NCBI GenBank assembly: GCA_964291405.2
Contig: OZ219926.1
Span: 1,344,001-1,408,000, forward strand
Direction of reading: 5' to 3'
DNA from: Thermodesulfobacteriota bacterium
Lineage (GTDB): Bacteria > Desulfobacterota > Binatia > Bin18
Length of the DNA stretch: 64,000 bases
In this document: positions 2,073 to 32,521 of the stretch, piece after piece
How positions within the stretch are numbered: position 1 is the first letter of the stretch
How the letters are laid out: each line of letters begins with the position of its first letter
Program-made: the position numbers and the translations under genes
Notes under the pieces: generated by a model
Database searches by the model: none
Told to the model about the DNA's origin: nothing
Seen by the model: the letters and a program-made list of their open reading frames with translations, nothing else

Positions 2073-2156
2073 CTTATCGCTGGTCGTCCTCCTGAACTCT
2101 TGCGTCCGCTGGACAGGGTGTGAAAGAACCACGGAGAGAAAAACAAGGAGGAAGAG

Positions 2157-3230
2157 ATGGCAGACCCACAGTTTGACCAGGCAAGAGCCGACGCCTTTTC
2201 CCAAAAGATGCTCGGCATCTTAAATGACGCGAGTGTGGCCCAGATGATAGTCATCGGCCACCAAGTCGGCCTGTTTGACACACTGGCCGGCTTAGCCCCC
2301 TCGACGAGTGAGCAGATTGCGGCGGCGAGTGACTTAAACGAACGCTACGTACGCGAGTGGCTCGGAGCCATGGTGACCGGCCGGATTGTAGACTATGACC
2401 CTGCCGGGAAAACCTACCGCCTCCCGCCTGAGCATGCCGCCGCCATCACTCGAGCGGCCGGCCCGAAGAACCTCGCGGCGCTGCTGCAAATGGTGCCAAT
2501 GGTGGCGAGAGTCCAGCAGGGCATCGTGGACAGTTTTCGCAATGGCGGCGGCGTGCCGTATTCAGCGTTCAGCGACTTCCATCAGCTGATGGCCGAGGTG
2601 AGTGGAGCCGTCCACGATGTGTCTCTCGTGAACACGACCCTGCCCCTCGTCTCCCAGCTGGTCGAGCGTTTACGCACGGGCATTGACGTCCTCGACGTCG
2701 GGTGTGGAAGTGGCCATGCGGTCAATCTCATGGCGCAAGCGTTTCCGCAGAGCCGCTTTACAGGCTATGACTTCTCGGAAGAAGGCGTCGCTGCGGGACG
2801 GGCGGAGGCGCAGGAGTGGGGGCTCACCAATACCCAGCTGGCCGTCAAGGATGCGGCCGAGCTCGACGAGGTCAGCCGCTACGACTTTATCACCGCCTTT
2901 GATTCTATCCACGACCAGGCGCATCCCCGCGCCGTGCTCAAGGGCATTGCCCAGGCCTTGCGGCCCGACGGCACGTTTTTGATGGTGGATGTGAACAGCT
3001 CGAGCAATTTGGAGGAGAACCTCGACCATATCCTGGGGCCGATGCTGTATAGCATCTCATGTATGCATTGAATGTCGGTCTCATTGGCCCTCCGGGGTGA
3101 GGGTCTCGGCGCGATGTGGGGCAGACACAAGGCTCAGGAGCTGTTGAGCGAAGCCGGCTTTACTCAGGTCACCATCAAGAATGTGGAACAGGATATGATG
3201 AATAACTACTACATCTGCACGAAGGGCTAG
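2157..3230 (+). CDS. Rv2258c-like winged-helix + class I SAM methyltransferase, putative selenoprotein (TGA 3069-3071 = residue 305, C-M-H-U)
   Basis: '[10 protein letters not shown]' N-terminal domain, [12 protein letters not shown] motif, FDSIHD; frame stays open past TGA as [17 protein letters not shown]...AGF...NNYYICTKG* (TAG 3228-3230), the normal family C-terminus. Confidence 0.85.
3074..3110 (+). promoter_or_regulatory. Putative bacterial SECIS hairpin
   Basis: Upper stem GGCCCTC(3086-3092)/GAGGGTC(3099-3105), loop CGGGGT with G at position 2, 21 nt after TGA; possible lower stem GTCGG/TCGGC. Confidence 0.6.
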
Positions 3231-3289
3231 CGAAGACGGCGGCATGTGGAGGGGTTAGAGGTTGTAGGGACAAAGATAGGCCGTTGTCC

Positions 3290-4468
3290 TTATGTGGGAG
3301 ATATCTGAGTATCCTCCAGGCTTTCCATTTCCTCCTCCCATGTCATACGCTTCCTCAAGGAGTTCAAGACCGGTTCGGAAGGCAGGGCTTCAGGGAAAAG
3401 GACCCCTCGCTGCGTAATGGTCCCATCGGCTAAGAGCATGATGGCAGCGACCGCTGGTCCGGTGATAATCAGGTTTCGATCGGCTGAAGCCCCACGAAAC
3501 GTACAGCGGGTACGGACACCGTGCTTCTCTCCCTCGACATAGACAACGACCCCAAATCCAGTCCCCTTGGCAGCATCGAGCGCTGTAATCCGCTGAAATA
3601 GTGGGCTCTCGACAAAGTACCGCGAGGTCAAAAACTCCACCATAAAATCAAAGGGGACAATAGGACTCTCGCCAACTTGCAAGGGTTCTGTGGTGCATAA
3701 ACGCGCGTCTCGCAGAAAGGTCAGGAGTGAGTTAAACTCCTCCACCCAATACCCACCCTTACACACGACTGCCTGCGGCTCCTTGAGCAGGGCACGAGAG
3801 GCGTGGAGCATCAAGGGCTCCCCATGTCCTACTACCCGTACGGTCTGCCGACCGATCGGCGGGGGAAAATCTAAGCTTTCCTCCTCTGTCCAGGCCTGGA
3901 TCTCTTGGATCTGGCCAGCGCGACAGACAGGAACAGAGGCGCTCGCCATACCCATCCGATGGATCCACAGGGCGCGGGCAAAAACGCTGATGCTGGCAAT
4001 CCAATTGAGACCAATCCGATCTACGCGCTCCAGCCTATCTGCCCCAGCTCGGGCCCAGAGGTTCGTCAGTCCTGGGGAACCTCCGATTCCCAGGACGAGC
4101 GTACAGCCACGCCGCTCAGCTTCTCCACTATACTGAGCCGCCAGATCACTGACGTTGAGATCATCGTTGATATCGACATAGTGGACTCCCGCCTCTACCG
4201 CAGCGCGCATACCGGGCAGACCCGTATCGGAATACGGGCCGGCAAAGTTGCCGATGAGATCCGTGTTGCGCGCGGCCGCCAAGAGGGCCGTATGATCACG
4301 AATATCCAGACCGAGACCTGCGCTCGCCCCAACCTCTTGAGCAACCCGCTTGGCCCGCTCCCCGTCCAAATCTGAGACGACAAGTTCAGTAATACTGTTT
4401 TCCTGGGCCAAAAGCTTGGCAATCCGAGAGCCTTGGGTGCCCGCGCCTCCGAGTAGCAGCACACGCAT
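3290..4468 (-). CDS. Saccharopine dehydrogenase-like oxidoreductase
   Basis: GGAGTQG Rossmann motif, 'NFAGPY', 'GVHYVDIND', 'GIGGSPGLTN', HGEP. Confidence 0.85.
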   Translation of the reverse strand: MRVLLLGGAGTQGSRIAKLLAQENSITELVVSDLDGERAKRVAQEVGASAGLGLDIRDHTALLAAARNTDLIGNFAGPYSDTGLPGMRAAVEAGVHYVDINDDLNVSDLAAQYSGEAERRGCTLVLGIGGSPGLTNLWARAGADRLERVDRIGLNWIASISVFARALWIHRMGMASASVPVCRAGQIQEIQAWTEEESLDFPPPIGRQTVRVVGHGEPLMLHASRALLKEPQAVVCKGGYWVEEFNSLLTFLRDARLCTTEPLQVGESPIVPFDFMVEFLTSRYFVESPLFQRITALDAAKGTGFGVVVYVEGEKHGVRTRCTFRGASADRNLIITGPAVAAIMLLADGTITQRGVLFPEALPSEPVLNSLRKRMTWEEEMESLEDTQISPT

Positions 4469-8055: not shown

Positions 8056-9749
8056 TTAGACTCGTTTACGCTGATATTTTCGACCTAACGCCTCCTCATC
8101 GCGCAGATATTTGGCCATCCGTTCATGGCTGAATCCATACGGTCCGCTACCGAATAAACCGACTTCTTCAATCGCCAGCCGCTCTAATTCAGCATTACTA
8201 GATAAATCGCCTAAGCCTTGCTCAGTCGGCAGCTCGGCAGCCCGCCAAGCGTCAAATCCGCCCTGCAATACTGCGACGCGGGTATAGCCCATGGCTTTTA
8301 AGGTGGGGACGGATAAGGGCGAGAGATTCCCCTTGCGGCACATCAGCACCACCAGGGTCGTTTTGTCCGGTACTTCATGTTCAATCTGGAGGTCGAGCTT
8401 GCCCCGCGAGAGCCAGCGTGCGCCCGGCACATGAGCAGTGGCGAAATCGCCCAGACTCCGCACATCGAGCAGTGCAGGCTGCTCACCAGCATCAGCTGAG
8501 TCTGCAAGGCTTGCGGCGTGAGGAGTTCGGCCTGCGCACGAGCTTCAGCCAAGCCGGGGATCGGCAGAGCCTGGGGCTCTACCCCGGCCGGCAGTCCCTG
8601 CAGCAGCCGCGCCATCCATACGGGCTGGCCAAAATCAATCTCTTGGGGGTCGCCAGTCTCAAGCTCAAAACCGGCGGCTTTCCAGGCGGTCGTGCCGCCG
8701 TCCAGGACACTCACGTTTGGATAGCCAGCTCCCTTGAGTACAGACGCGGCGATAATCGCCCGGGCGCGGCCGGCACACATGGTGATAATCGGTGCGTTCT
8801 TCACGCCGATCAAACTCTCGACCAGGAGGGCAATCTGAGTCGCGGGACAAAAATGGGCGCCGGGAATATGGCCGGCCTGATACTCGTCGAGCAAACGCAC
8901 ATCGAGCAGGTAGAGCAACTCACCCTTTTCCTGCCGAGCGTGCACGTCCTGAGGGGTGATACTGGAAACGTTGTCTTCTGTGGCAAGGTGCTCGGCAAAC
9001 TGTTTGCACGTTGAGATACCAGTCTCAGAAAGTCGGGGCACGGGGACGCCGTCGCCTTTCTCAAGTTCCCCGGTGTAGCCGGCAATGCGCCAGGCCCCGG
9101 TGCCACCCTTCAGCGCGTAGACGTCGGTAAAACCCATCCGCCGTAAAATATGAGCTCCCAGCAAGCTGCGTGTGCGGCCGGCACAGTTGGTGACAATCGT
9201 CCGGCCTTTGTCTGGTACAACCTCGGGCGCGATCAGGGCTAACTGCCCGCCTGGAGCGCAATACGCGCCTGGCAAATGCGCAGCCTTGAATTCCGGCTCA
9301 GTGCGAGTATCAAAGATATACAGCTGTTCGCCTTGCTTCAGGCGCGCATGGAGTTCTTCGGCCATCATCTCGGGGATGTCCTCCTCGACCTGGAGACGCT
9401 CGCCATAGACTTTGCCCCGTAAACTCCAGCCATGCATTGTCTCATAGCCAGCCGCTGTCCAGGCGGTGAGACCGCTGTCCAGGACCGACACATTGGTATA
9501 GCCCAGGGTTTCCAGGCTGAGGGCCGCCCGAGTCGAACGTTGGCCGGTATCGCAGTACAGAACTGTAGGGATATCGGTCTTGGGGACTAACACCGAAATA
9601 TACTTTTCTAATGATCCGCGCGGGATGCAGTTGGTGCCAGGAATCTGGCCCAGGGAAAATTCTCCCCAGTCCCGGACATCAATGACCGCATACAGCACCT
9701 GGCTGTCTAGAAGCGCTTTGAGATCTTGGGCACTCATACTGCCTGCCAT
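8056..9749 (-). CDS. Multi-domain rhodanese-like sulfurtransferase, frameshifted (1-bp deletion near 8494)
   Basis: Four rhodanese repeats (DVR..EF..GQIPG; DTRTEPEF...HLPGA with CAGRTRS; DVR..EY..GHIPGA; DVRS..DF...HVPGA); restoring one base gives QLDAGEQPALLDVRSLGDF and joins ORFs 8343-9806 and 8056-8463. Confidence 0.8.
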
Positions 9750-9887
9750 GAGAGTTCCTCCTTGTGACGCGTACGGAAAAGTCCGCAGGTGCTTGACCGC
9801 GCCCATATGACGTTGGACAATCGAAGCCTAGGCTCGAGAGATGGTCAATACCCATAAGATGAGCTGACTGCTGCAAGGGAGGGAGAT

Positions 9888-10493
9888 ATGGCTGAAAAAT
9901 GGAAAATTGAGGGTGATTATTTTGAATCGTGTAATTGTGACACGATCTGTGCCTGTTTGATCCAGAACCCGCCCCCTCGTGGGCGGTGTGACGCGGCCCT
10001 GGCGTTTCATGTGAATCAGGGGAGCTATGGCCAGACGAGCCTCGGCGATCTGAACGCCGTGCTCGTGGTGTCCTTTCCCGGTCCGGGCAAGATGGGGGAC
10101 GGCAACTGGACTGCGGCCCTGTACGTGGACGACAAGGCCTCCACAGACCAGCAAGAGGGGCTGAGTGCGATTTTCTCCGGTCAGGCGGGTGGGCCCATGC
10201 AGCTGGTCTCGGGTCTGATCAGTAATTTTCTGGGGATCAAGACCGCTCCCATTGCGTTTACGATAGACGCCAACAATCGGCGGCTGACGATTCCGGACGT
10301 GCTGGAGATCGACATTGAGGCACTGACCGGTCGGGACGGCAGTGAGCCGCTATGGGTCACCAACGCCAATCACCCGGTTTCGCCCAGGCTGTCGCTGGCC
10401 AAATCCAACGCGTATCGCTACACCGACCACAACCTGGCCTGGGACGTCGATAATACCAACGGCCACTTTGCGCCGTTTAGCTGGCAGAATTAG
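9888..10493 (+). CDS. DUF1326 family protein
   Basis: 'W.IEGDYFESCNC..ICAC...P..G.C', 'IFSGQAGGP'; usual partner of DUF2182. Confidence 0.85.
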   Translation: MAEKWKIEGDYFESCNCDTICACLIQNPPPRGRCDAALAFHVNQGSYGQTSLGDLNAVLVVSFPGPGKMGDGNWTAALYVDDKASTDQQEGLSAIFSGQAGGPMQLVSGLISNFLGIKTAPIAFTIDANNRRLTIPDVLEIDIEALTGRDGSEPLWVTNANHPVSPRLSLAKSNAYRYTDHNLAWDVDNTNGHFAPFSWQN

Positions 10494-10599
10494 CCCGTTT
10501 TAACGTGGCTGGACCGTGCGTTCAGCCCCCGACCCCTATCGACCTGGTTGCCCTTTCCCCGTTGGAAAAGGACTGAGGTGAGGGAAGAGACTGCCAGCC

Positions 10600-11367
10600 A
10601 TGACCTTACGAGATAAGATCATCATCGTCACCGCTCTCGTGCTGCTGTCCGTTCTGGCCTGGATTGCCACCGTGCACCAGGCCGGAGGGATGGGGCTTGG
10701 CCTGATGACCATGAGTATGACTATGGGCCTGCCATTCTCGGTCTCTAATGCAGTCCTGTACATTGCCCTCTGGGGTGTCATGATGGTGGCCATGATGTTC
10801 CCGTCTGTCGCGCCAACGGCCGTGCTGTTCGCCACCGTAACGCGCCAAAAACGAGAGCAGGCTGCCCCCTTTGCTCCGGCGTGGCTCTTTACCGCTGGGT
10901 ATGCCGTGCTGTGGACCCTGACTGGCGGGGTGGCCTATGCTGGGGACATCGCCATCCAGTCCCTGCCCGACACTTTTCTTGGCCTGCGAACGTATGGCTC
11001 TGCTATCGGTGGGCTGACCCTGATCATCGCCGGCCTGTATCAGCTCAGCCCGCTCAAATACGTCTGCCTGTCGAAATGTCGCTCCCCACTCGGCTTCCTG
11101 CTCAATAGTTGGCGAGACGGGTACTGGGGGGCGTTTCGGATGGGCTTGCACCACGGCGCCTACTGCCTGGGGTGTTGCTGGAGTCTGATGGCCGTGCTGT
11201 TCGTTGTCGGCACCATGAACCTGGTGTGGATGGGTGTTTTGACCCTGATTATTTTTATGGAGAAGATTCTTCCCTACGGGGTGGCACTGGGAAAAGGCAC
11301 GGGCATTGGCCTGATCGGCCTGGGACTGGTCCTGGTTGTCGCCCCCAGTACGCTGGCCGTGGGCTAA
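10600..11367 (+). CDS. DUF2182 predicted metal-binding integral membrane protein
   Basis: 'W..MMVAMMFPS', 'GLYQLSPLK..CL..CRSP', 'YCLGCCW.LM..LF..G.MN..WM...EK'. Confidence 0.88.
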   Translation: MTLRDKIIIVTALVLLSVLAWIATVHQAGGMGLGLMTMSMTMGLPFSVSNAVLYIALWGVMMVAMMFPSVAPTAVLFATVTRQKREQAAPFAPAWLFTAGYAVLWTLTGGVAYAGDIAIQSLPDTFLGLRTYGSAIGGLTLIIAGLYQLSPLKYVCLSKCRSPLGFLLNSWRDGYWGAFRMGLHHGAYCLGCCWSLMAVLFVVGTMNLVWMGVLTLIIFMEKILPYGVALGKGTGIGLIGLGLVLVVAPSTLAVG

Positions 11368-31360: not shown

Positions 31361-32521
31361 ATGCACGACAACGACCAAGCCATGCGCGAGTTTGCCAAGA
31401 CCTTAGCGCTGCCAGAATTTGAAGAAGCCGCTTTCACGAAACCACCACCGCTGCGAGAGGCGCACGTGGCGATCGTGACCAGCGCTGCGCTCCACCGAAT
31501 CGGCAGCCCCAAGTGGAAGGTTGAGGATTTCCACTTTGAGACCTTGCCGAATGACGCCCGCGATCTGAAGCTCGGCCACCTGAGCCCGAACTTTGATCGG
31601 GCTGGCTTTGCCGCTGACATGAACGTCGTCTATCCGGTCGACCGCCTGCAGGAACTCTCCGATCAGGGGGTGATCGGCAGCGTCGCTAATTACCACTACG
31701 CCTTCGCCGGCAACCAACCCGAAGGGCTATCCGCGCTGCGTTTGGATACTGGTCCGGCCTGCGCTCACAAGATGCGTGAGGATGGAGTGGATGTTGTCCT
31801 GCTCACTCCGGTTTGACCGCTGTGTCCGCGTACCGTGTGTACGCTGGCCCACGTCTTCGAGGCGGCTGGTCTGTCAACGGTCGTGATCTCACCGATGCGT
31901 GATGTTGCAGAACGCATGCGTCCACCACGCGTACTGTATGCAGAATTTCCATTAGGGCTGCCTCTCGGCAAGCCCCGCGACGCGGCCTATCAGCACCGGG
32001 TGCTCGAAGCGGCCTTTGCCCTGCTGGAACGGCCGAGTGGACCGGTTCTCGTAGACTTCCCGGAGACGATCCAAAGCAGGGGTGGGGAGCCCTTAGAGTG
32101 TCCGCTTCCGCCTCGTTACGATCCGAACCTGCACCCAGCCATTGACGAAGCACAAGCGTTACGCGCTGCTTACGACCGCGCTGTAGCGAAAACTGGGCGG
32201 ACCAGTGTCGGCCGGGTGATCAATGCGGATCAGATTCCTGCCGCACTCGAGAAGTTCGTACGTATCGCCGAAGGGGAAGCCTGGGATCAGGTTGGGCTCG
32301 AAGGGACGACTATGCAGGTCGTGCACGATATCCGGGCCTACTACGAAGAGTTGGCCTGCGAACTGGTAGTCGACGAGCCCATTCCGGCGTGGAGCGCTGA
32401 GCGTTGGTTCTACGATAAAACCGAGGCCGGTAAGGTGTTGCTGACGGCACGCCGTACGCTGAAGGAGAGTGGGGCGAACCGTCCGATCTGGTTTTTCATG
32501 GCCCCGGGCTCACGCCAGTAA
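31361..32521 (+). CDS. GrdB/PrdB (glycine/betaine/sarcosine/D-proline reductase selenoprotein B)-like protein, Sec152 in UxxC, with extra C-terminal domain
   Basis: 'VAIVTSAALH', 'DMNVVYPVDRL.EL...G.IG', 'DGVDVVLLTPV-U-PLCPRTV...A...EAAG..TV', 'PPR.L...FP.G.PLG'; in-frame TGA at 31814-31816. Confidence 0.88.
31826..31847 (+). promoter_or_regulatory. Putative bacterial SECIS hairpin
   Basis: Stem GCGTAC/GTACGC extended by CC/GG across a bulged T, loop CGTGT with G at position 2, 17 nt after TGA. Confidence 0.7.

Follow-up and report, generated by a model that had tools for sequence, protein, structure and literature searches.

Does the TGA at positions 3069–3071 of this stretch of Binatia DNA end a methyltransferase gene, or does it stand for a selenocysteine (Sec) within a longer protein? 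The window analysed here, 64,000 nucleotides of contig OZ219926.1 from a Thermodesulfobacteriota bacterium of the class Binatia, contains at 2157–3071 an open reading frame of 304 amino acids that is closed by this TGA, and the same frame stays open for 52 codons further, to a TAG at 3228–3230. The data described below argue that the UGA of the messenger is very probably recoded as Sec. With high probability the gene at 2157–3230 would encode one 357-residue selenoprotein of the Rv2258c-like methyltransferases, in which a cysteine was changed to Sec once within Binatia.

The reading frame continues past the TGA

Translation with TGA read as Sec (U) follows the frame past the codon for 52 codons without an insertion or deletion, as the initial annotation had claimed, and gives the local peptide [13 protein letters not shown]. 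The segment after the TGA aligns to the C-terminus of Rv2258c, so that its earlier description as the normal C-terminus of the family holds as well. Reassignment of UGA throughout the genome was considered as an explanation and rejected, because TGA is an ordinary stop codon here and closes 758 of the 2125 open frames of at least 350 codons.

Public gene calls treat the TGA as a stop. Among the 120 best protein clusters, 40 (80–97% identity) end at 304 amino acids, and four truncated database sequences in an alignment of 20 sequences end with SCMH, right before the Sec column. The remaining 80 clusters consist of 79 with 356–373 amino acids and 62–72% identity, and one with 378 amino acids and 88% identity (P0039). 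The latter departs from the family just 5′ of the Sec site and continues in what resembles sequence of another frame; it comes from a contig of 3991 bases, and its end is probably due to a frameshift or an assembly error.

The TGA occupies an invariant cysteine column in one clade

At the Sec site, homologues read S-x-x-H-C-M-T-V-S-L. We compared by tblastn 94 homologous loci without TGA, which come from many phyla with 40–64% identity and one of which is cut by a contig end. Cys stands at the Sec column in 93 of the 93 alignable loci and is preceded by His in 92, and H-C-M is found at the site in 14 of 14 full-length database homologues of the 20-sequence alignment. The codon for this Cys is TGC in 61 and TGT in 12 of 73 Cys forms. 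The claim of the initial annotation that the TGA falls on a conserved Cys of the motif S-x-x-H-C-(M/L)-(T/P)-V-S-L is therefore borne out by every alignable locus.

The distribution of the TGA was followed by genome searches that read through stop codons, with homologue thresholds of E 1e-60 for a family sample and E 1e-90 for a class sample. In the family sample of 55 genomes, 41 have a homologue and 18 of them have exactly one TGA; the 18 are divided between genus g1 (12 genomes, this one included) and genus g4 (six genomes), and these orthologues share 85–100% identity over the full 357 residues. The class sample of 401 genomes gave 58 with a homologue, namely 19 with exactly one TGA and 39 without a stop, and contributed one TGA genome from another genus, of a neighbouring family. 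The 39 stop-free homologues, one of which is from an unpublished genome, reach at most 62% identity. A phylum sample, again of 401 genomes and at E 1e-90, contained three genomes with a homologue counting this one, and the other two have no stop. The TGA is thus not unique to this contig: it occurs in 19 of the 58 homologue-bearing Binatia genomes, all in one clade, while the distant homologues have TGC or TGT.

Both the position of the TGA codon and the terminal TAG are identical in 19/19 TGA forms. In a tree of 94 rows these 19 forms make up a single clade among the Cys forms, with a value of 100 in the Shimodaira–Hasegawa-like approximate likelihood ratio test (SH-aLRT), and one change of state suffices. 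The tree and the alignments indicate that Cys gave way to Sec once, in one Binatia lineage, and that Sec has persisted while at least three genera diverged. Independent Sec forms were sought in metagenome contigs with a degenerate 23-letter pattern for H-U-M-T-V-S-L-A, which is blind to other codon choices; none of the 16 stretches returned is homologous, as they lack a tblastn match and have unrelated flanks. One locus of genus g4 (genome G032, C1:4018204–4018983) matches only at methyltransferase residues 98–357, in an open frame of 329 amino acids; its TGA, hairpin and tail are intact, and its 5′ part is possibly rearranged.

Purifying selection acts on both sides of the TGA

Across 18 orthologues, the 52 codons after the TGA have 8, 6 and 32 variable columns at codon positions 1, 2 and 3, compared with 64, 31 and 194 in the 304 codons before it. 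Pairwise ratios of nonsynonymous to synonymous substitution (dN/dS), calculated by the Nei–Gojobori method, are 0.04–0.12 after the TGA versus 0.07–0.18 before it, so purifying selection on the downstream part is as strong as on the upstream part and shows no relaxation. The comparative evidence shows read-through of the UGA under selection.

These values also bear on the alternative, raised in the initial annotation, that a TGY-to-TGA nonsense mutation in a decaying island left the downstream frame as the remnant of a pseudogene. Such decay would agree with the public gene calls that end at 304 amino acids (40 of the 120 best clusters), with the upstream SnoaL-like gene, which is degraded in some relatives, and with the G032 locus that matches residues 98–357 only. 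The downstream frame, however, is open to the same end in 19/19 genomes, third positions account for 32 of its 46 variable columns, and its dN/dS remains this low while dS between genera reaches 0.8–1.4. We consider a pseudogene extremely improbable, and for this gene the nonsense mutation is refuted by the selection after the TGA, whatever the state of its neighbour. No opposite-strand overlapping gene of convincing length or conservation was seen over the tail.

Selection by itself does not distinguish recoding from a split gene, because the tail of a split gene would stay under selection too. The TGA would then be a true stop from which the adjacent ATG restarts translation, and peptides of 304 and 52 amino acids would assemble into an enzyme without the invariant Cys. 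The codon right after the TGA is indeed an ATG, and the Met306 that it encodes is ancestral, being present in 69 of 70 Cys forms. Yet the enzyme would forfeit the residue that is Cys in 93/93 homologues, and the split gene is further opposed by three observations that are described below: a hairpin specific to the TGA forms (19/19 versus 1/73), a loop motif common to four other selenoprotein-type genes of the genome, which it would leave unexplained, and the complete Sec machinery of the host. On these grounds we regard a split gene as very unlikely.

In three RNA libraries there are contigs that run across the TGA into the downstream part (X15, 3013–3298; X16, 3015–3242; X20, 2092–3256). The X20 contig is about 93% identical, and the X16 contig differs in one letter, at 3059 and not in the TGA. 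These contigs give a hint of transcription. Several of the sequencing runs with the gene are labelled sponge metagenome.

A hairpin of the bacterial SECIS type is specific to the TGA forms

A putative selenocysteine insertion sequence (SECIS) hairpin begins 14 nt 3′ of the TGA. Its arms, GGCCCUC and GAGGGUC, form seven pairs, including one G–U, around the 6-nt loop CGGGGU, which begins 21 nt after the UGA, and its folding energy is −10.5 kcal/mol; the stem, loop and spacing are those given in the initial annotation. The bacterial SECIS (bSECIS) model, as given in the legend to Fig. 2 of PMC13188914, has a loop of 3–9 nt with a G within its first two positions, a stem of 4–16 bp, a distance of 16–37 nt from UGA to loop and a minimum free energy of at most −7.5 kcal/mol. 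With a loop of CGGGGU or CGUGGU, the hairpin lies within all of these limits.

All seven pairs are kept in 19/19 TGA forms, where the sole stem change is from G–U to G–C, in four sequences; g1 orthologues have the loop CGGGGU and the remaining TGA forms CGUGGU, and the same stem emerges from RNAalifold. Among 73 Cys forms, the corresponding positions form seven pairs once and six pairs six times, with a median of four, so the hairpin is not only conserved in the TGA forms but also specific to them. The encoded peptide A-L-x-G-E-G is not in itself the source of the hairpin, because the Cys forms rarely pair fully. Of the third-codon positions, 4 of 12 vary within the span of the hairpin, versus 29 of 40 beyond it. 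The significance of the hairpin comes from this comparison with relatives, because its energy is ordinary for G+C-rich DNA; folding energy was dropped as a line of evidence, the z-scores being weak in such DNA. Rfam has no relevant match in 2900–3400, and a promoter and terminator scan of the + strand found nothing beyond chance. In the mechanism that we propose, SelB with Sec-tRNA(Sec) would bind the hairpin at 3086–3105 and insert Sec at the UGA.

The host encodes the Sec machinery and other selenoprotein-type genes

The genome has matches over the curated cut-offs to tRNA-Sec (69 bits, anticodon tca), to selA next to it (598 bits), to selB (393 bits) and to selD (308 bits, C3:39564–40481, + strand), and all four lie on C3, the 4.9-Mb contig that also carries the window. 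The machinery for Sec insertion is thus present in the host. The selD match lies within an open frame of 759 amino acids, compared with 311 positions in the family model, which suggests that selD is fused to another domain.

A genome scan for an in-frame TGA followed by a hairpin with the loop CG[U/G]G[G/U] gave 14 hits. Five are at recognisable Cys/Sec sites, in a Prx-like gene, an AhpD-like gene, the methyltransferase and two GrdB-like genes, and the other nine are chance-like, with arginine-rich or otherwise odd translations. The Prx-like gene (T-P-G-U motif, C3:205171, + strand) and the AhpD-like gene (C-F-Y-U motif, C3:1342629, + strand, about 1.4 kb upstream of the window start) have the same hairpin loop motif and are likely to be further selenoprotein genes. 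The PrdB-like gene with the similar loop CGTGT, noticed earlier as a second selenoprotein-type gene in the window, was recovered as a GrdB/PrdB-like gene (Pfam GRDB, 40 bits) with TGA at 31814–31816 (+ strand) in a U-P-L-C motif; its hairpin (arms GCGUAC and GUACGC, loop CGUGU, 31828–31844) begins 14 nt later than the TGA start. A second GrdB-like copy, near C3:758883 (− strand), has a U-P-V-C motif and the loop CGUGG. Formate dehydrogenase is the most common bacterial selenoprotein, and none of the 21 matches to its alpha subunit on contig C3 has an internal stop, so they offer no SECIS for comparison. The selenoproteome is unusual in this respect, with Prx-like, AhpD-like, GrdB-like and methyltransferase selenoprotein genes and with formate dehydrogenase homologues that were found without TGA.

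Hairpins 3′ of stop codons can stimulate read-through generally, and with help from this one a near-cognate tRNA for Trp, Cys or Arg could give a full-length protein without selenium; comparative data do not distinguish which residue is inserted. Against such read-through, the TGA is placed precisely on the invariant Cys column, the classic signature of a Cys/Sec pair, the hairpin fits the bSECIS model and is similar to its counterparts in the Prx-, AhpD- and GrdB-like genes, and the Sec machinery is complete. Near-cognate read-through is accordingly a highly improbable source of the full-length protein, and we infer that selenium itself is incorporated at Sec305.

Several points weigh against recoding and temper this assessment. 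The support is comparative and comes from nucleotide sequences. The 19 TGA genomes are all kin of one clade, hence they do not count as 19 independent events. The hairpin is nearly invariant and shows no double compensatory change in RNAalifold, its folding energy does not stand out from that of shuffled sequences (z −1.38 for the 20-mer and −0.26 for 71 nt), and an alternative fold competes with it in a 41-nt context. Finally, the RNA-library contigs may include DNA, and they say nothing on translation. Taken together, the TGA clade, the Cys column, the hairpin, the machinery and the selection after the TGA support the proposal of the initial annotation that the gene encodes a selenoprotein in a winged-helix S-adenosylmethionine (SAM) methyltransferase family. 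The features of the gene are collected in Table 1.

Table 1. Features of the candidate selenoprotein gene, in window coordinates
Feature	Position	Strand	Basis or remark
Shine–Dalgarno-like AGGAGG	2146–2151	+	5 nt upstream of ATG; direct sequence reading
Full coding sequence, 357 residues with predicted Sec at 305, and TAG stop	2157–3230	+	Translation with TGA=U; 85–98% identity to one-TGA orthologues over all 357 residues
Rv2258c-like winged helix-turn-helix domain, residues 25–99	2229–2453	+	Pfam PF21320 HTH_65
Class I SAM-dependent methyltransferase domain, residues 164–336, spanning the Sec codon	2646–3164	+	Pfam Methyltransf_23, E 2e-20
Cys302 codon TGT, the C of C-M-H-U	3060–3062	+	Cys in 19/19 Sec forms and 34/70 Cys forms
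His304 codon, immediately 5′ of the Sec codon	3066–3068	+	His in 92/93 alignable homologous loci
UGA as probable selenocysteine codon (Sec305)	3069–3071	+	Aligned with Cys in 93/93 homologous loci; TGA in 19 genomes
52 codons 3′ of the UGA, normal family C-terminus (helix, β6, β7)	3072–3227	+	Aligns to Rv2258c C-terminus
Putative bacterial SECIS hairpin	3086–3105	+	Arms 3086–3092 and 3099–3105, loop 3093–3098 (CGGGGU)

The protein is of the Rv2258c type

The match to PF21320 (E 7.6e-35, 119.4 bits against a cut-off of 24.1) covers positions 1–75 of the 75 in the profile. Besides Methyltransf_23, the Pfam models Methyltransf_31, _12, _25 and _11 match too, and the class I models jointly span residues 164–336 across the TGA. 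SAM motif I, DVGCGSG, is invariant in the family alignment. The closest solved structure is that of Rv2258c (PDB 5f8c; phmmer E 5.1e-122, residues 11–356), and the second-best solved relative is TnmJ (PDB 8G5S; E 4.9e-48, residues 6–338). An AlphaFold model of the protein, with a mean predicted local distance difference test score (pLDDT) of 75.2 and a predicted template modelling (TM) score of 0.70, has as its top Foldseek match chain B of another Rv2258c structure (5f8e_B; E 9.5e-39, TM 0.69, 54% identity), followed by the natural-product and other small-molecule methyltransferases CurJ, DsyB, MfnG, RedM and DnrK. By these profile and structure matches the protein is an Rv2258c-type enzyme, made up of a winged-helix domain, a linker and a class I SAM methyltransferase fold, and methyl transfer is its predicted activity. 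The winged-helix domain of Rv2258c mediates dimerisation.

No NCBIfam model scores over its cut-off for this protein. Membership of the arsenite methyltransferase (ArsM) family was rejected, since the model NF008823 gave 34.4 bits against a curated cut-off of 263; the selenoprotein ‘exception’ methyltransferase models of NCBIfam gave 27–31 bits against cut-offs of 460–575. The Rv2258c orthogroup is distributed over Actinomycetota, Cyanobacteria, Chloroflexota, Acidobacteriota and some archaea. The genome also has a near-identical pair of paralogues with 37–38% identity to the methyltransferase, close to both ends of the contig (C3:27830–28876 and C3:4893975–4895021), and both retain Cys in the motif V-M-G-C-M-S-S; the pair could be a true duplication or could come from an overlap in the assembly.

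A possible role of Sec305 in the methyl-acceptor pocket

In the AlphaFold model residue 305 lies in a helix (294–311) between β5 (268–279) and the last strands (335–343 and 346–356). Here Sec305 would replace the family-invariant Cys beside the near-invariant His304, on the helix between β5 and β6. We propose that Sec305 and His304 line the methyl-acceptor pocket, where the selenol might serve as a soft nucleophile or ligand that holds or activates the substrate, in the way of the corresponding Cys in ArsM; by this analogy, we give such a role roughly an even chance.

The analogy comes from a profile comparison by hhalign of 15 full-length family members with 11 ArsM proteins of the same bacterial family, which aligned with a probability of 97.6% over 155 columns and put C305 on the Cys of WIGCVAGA, which we take to be the cysteine after β5 that binds As(III). 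An ArsM-like gene of a sister genus (G042:C816:8000–11000, L162) has a TGA on the same ArsM column, in W-S-D-U-I-G-G-A. Because this TGA aligns with the C305 column, there appear to be two class I methyltransferase families in this bacterial family with Sec at the same structural place. Further ArsM-like genes with one TGA occur in sister genera (G043:C167, G042:C723 and G028:C182); these three fell outside the motif filter.

Other observations speak against this role or leave it without support. The hhalign alignment is gap-rich exactly around residue 305, and the pLDDT of the model is only about 69 for residues 291–310. Arsenite is not an obvious substrate, because the genome already has a Cys-type ArsM of its own (C3:3971421–3972227, 360.5 bits), and no neighbouring gene is conserved between genera, so that the context is silent on the substrate.

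A broader version of the ArsM analogy would extend to the whole orthogroup, in which the Cys or Sec would capture a thiophilic substrate (a metalloid, a chalcogen compound, a thiol or a selenol) near the methyl group of SAM; we put this forward tentatively, as possible though doubtful. The capture could be covalent or by coordination, and the Binatia lineage may, on the same speculative reading, have upgraded the residue to Sec for higher reactivity. If true, a large family with a solved structure would thereby gain an assigned chemistry.

Cys302 and Sec305 could instead form a selenenyl-sulfide redox switch that toggles the methyltransferase, with Sec making no contact with the substrate. The C-x-x-U spacing on one helix is found in 19/19 Sec forms, and of 70 Cys forms 57 have Cys or Thr at position 302 (Cys in 34, Thr in 23), a choice of residues reminiscent of redox motifs derived from CxxC. 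In the accessible part of the PMC13188914 catalogue, several redox selenoproteins have C-x-x-U as their motif. The other 13 of the 70 Cys forms, however, have Val, Ala, Leu or Met at position 302, so a resolving Cys is no requirement of the family. A two-cysteine redox motif is likewise not a family feature, because only 34/70 have Cys at this position. The paralogues of the same genome read V-M-G-C, and residue 305 falls on the ArsM Cys column, where the sister-genus ArsM-like gene has its TGA too. In view of this we consider a redox switch rather unlikely, and prefer the placement of Sec305 in the acceptor pocket. The initial annotation had suggested metal or metalloid binding or redox chemistry at this site, and such a metal, metalloid or redox site at C-x-x-U remains conjecture.

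Genomic neighbourhood

The neighbours of the gene in the window encode an epoxide hydrolase, a SnoaL_4 protein, a saccharopine-dehydrogenase-like protein and an isochorismatase, with the SnoaL_4 gene (1548–2072, + strand) directly upstream of the methyltransferase. Among the 12 g1 orthologues, SnoaL is full-length beside seven, reduced to remnants of 30–112 amino acids beside four and missing beside one; the flank is variable at the loci with SnoaL counterparts (L024, L025, L027 and L029). The dehydrogenase-like gene accompanies 9 of the 12. The 1.5-kb flanks of the g4 copies yielded neither gene, and the g4 and g264 loci have the families FMN_dh, SCO1/SenC, alpha/beta hydrolase, ABC_tran and AMMECR1 instead. 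Gene context was dropped as a clue to the substrate, as no partner is conserved across the three genera.

About 5 kb from the methyltransferase is a cluster for sulfur and metal handling, to which no link was shown. In it, a protein with three rhodanese domains adjoins DUF1326 and a PpoB2 copper-chaperone-like gene (8343–9806, − strand, and 9888–11367, + strand).

Comparison with known selenoproteins and methyltransferases

Reports of new selenoprotein families in bacteria still appear regularly. Selenocysteine insertion is costly, and a Cys-to-Sec change that is maintained points to a residue that does chemistry, here the invariant His–Cys pair on the helix after β5. A functional residue is thereby singled out in a widespread family for which a crystal structure (Rv2258c) is available and we know of no substrate. 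Public annotation systematically truncates the enzyme, leaving out the last 53 residues and the key residue. We see the gene as a solid addition and no surprise of principle, as neither the recoding mechanism nor the route of discovery is new.

The methyltransferase selenoproteins in the accessible portions of PMC9312934 and PMC13188914 are ArsM, an Ada-type DNA methyltransferase, MduS, MTase/UXPK-star and two ArsM fusions, and no Rv2258c-like or HTH_65 family is named among these methyltransferase entries. In the part of PMC1976440 available, the Ada-type enzyme is the sole methyltransferase among the selenoproteins. The term ‘methyltransferase’ is absent from PMC12013277, PMC13326102 and bioRxiv 10.1101/2022.07.06.499078, as are ‘SAM-dependent’ and ‘Binat’ from the first two, and the matches listed in a literature search included none that links Rv2258c with selenoproteins. 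As far as these partly available sources allow comparison, the selenoprotein is uncatalogued and its recoding mechanism would be the standard bacterial one.

One catalogue entry might overlap, namely MduS (Haft and Tolstoy 2025, as listed in PMC13188914), which in the available entry has a PF13649 methyltransferase domain, a CxxU motif and two Sec. PF13649 matches the Binatia protein as well, and the CxxU motif is found in both. The entry, as far as it is accessible, gives two Sec for MduS, in contrast to the one TGA in 19/19 orthologues here, and names no winged-helix family for it; the two are set apart here by description only.

Rv2258c of M. tuberculosis (5F8C, 5F8E and 5F8F) is the nearest known system, with the same full-length architecture of HTH_65 and class I methyltransferase and the same local motif, S-x-M-H-C-M-T-V-S-L-A-L, but it has Cys where the Binatia protein has UGA/Sec and no need for a 3′ hairpin. 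TnmJ has the same two-domain fold but no Cys at the column (SVLYSVPASRA); the Cys therefore marks the Rv2258c subgroup and not the entire fold family. The ArsM selenoproteins and their fusions (NF008823, NF041536 and NF041537) are also class I SAM methyltransferases with Sec after β5, but form a separate family without the winged-helix domain, and their motif, given as UxxG in the accessible part of the PMC13188914 catalogue, differs from H-U-M-S in the Binatia protein. The parallel with ArsM, in which Sec occupies the same aligned column, offers a concrete hypothesis for the chemistry of the Rv2258c family.

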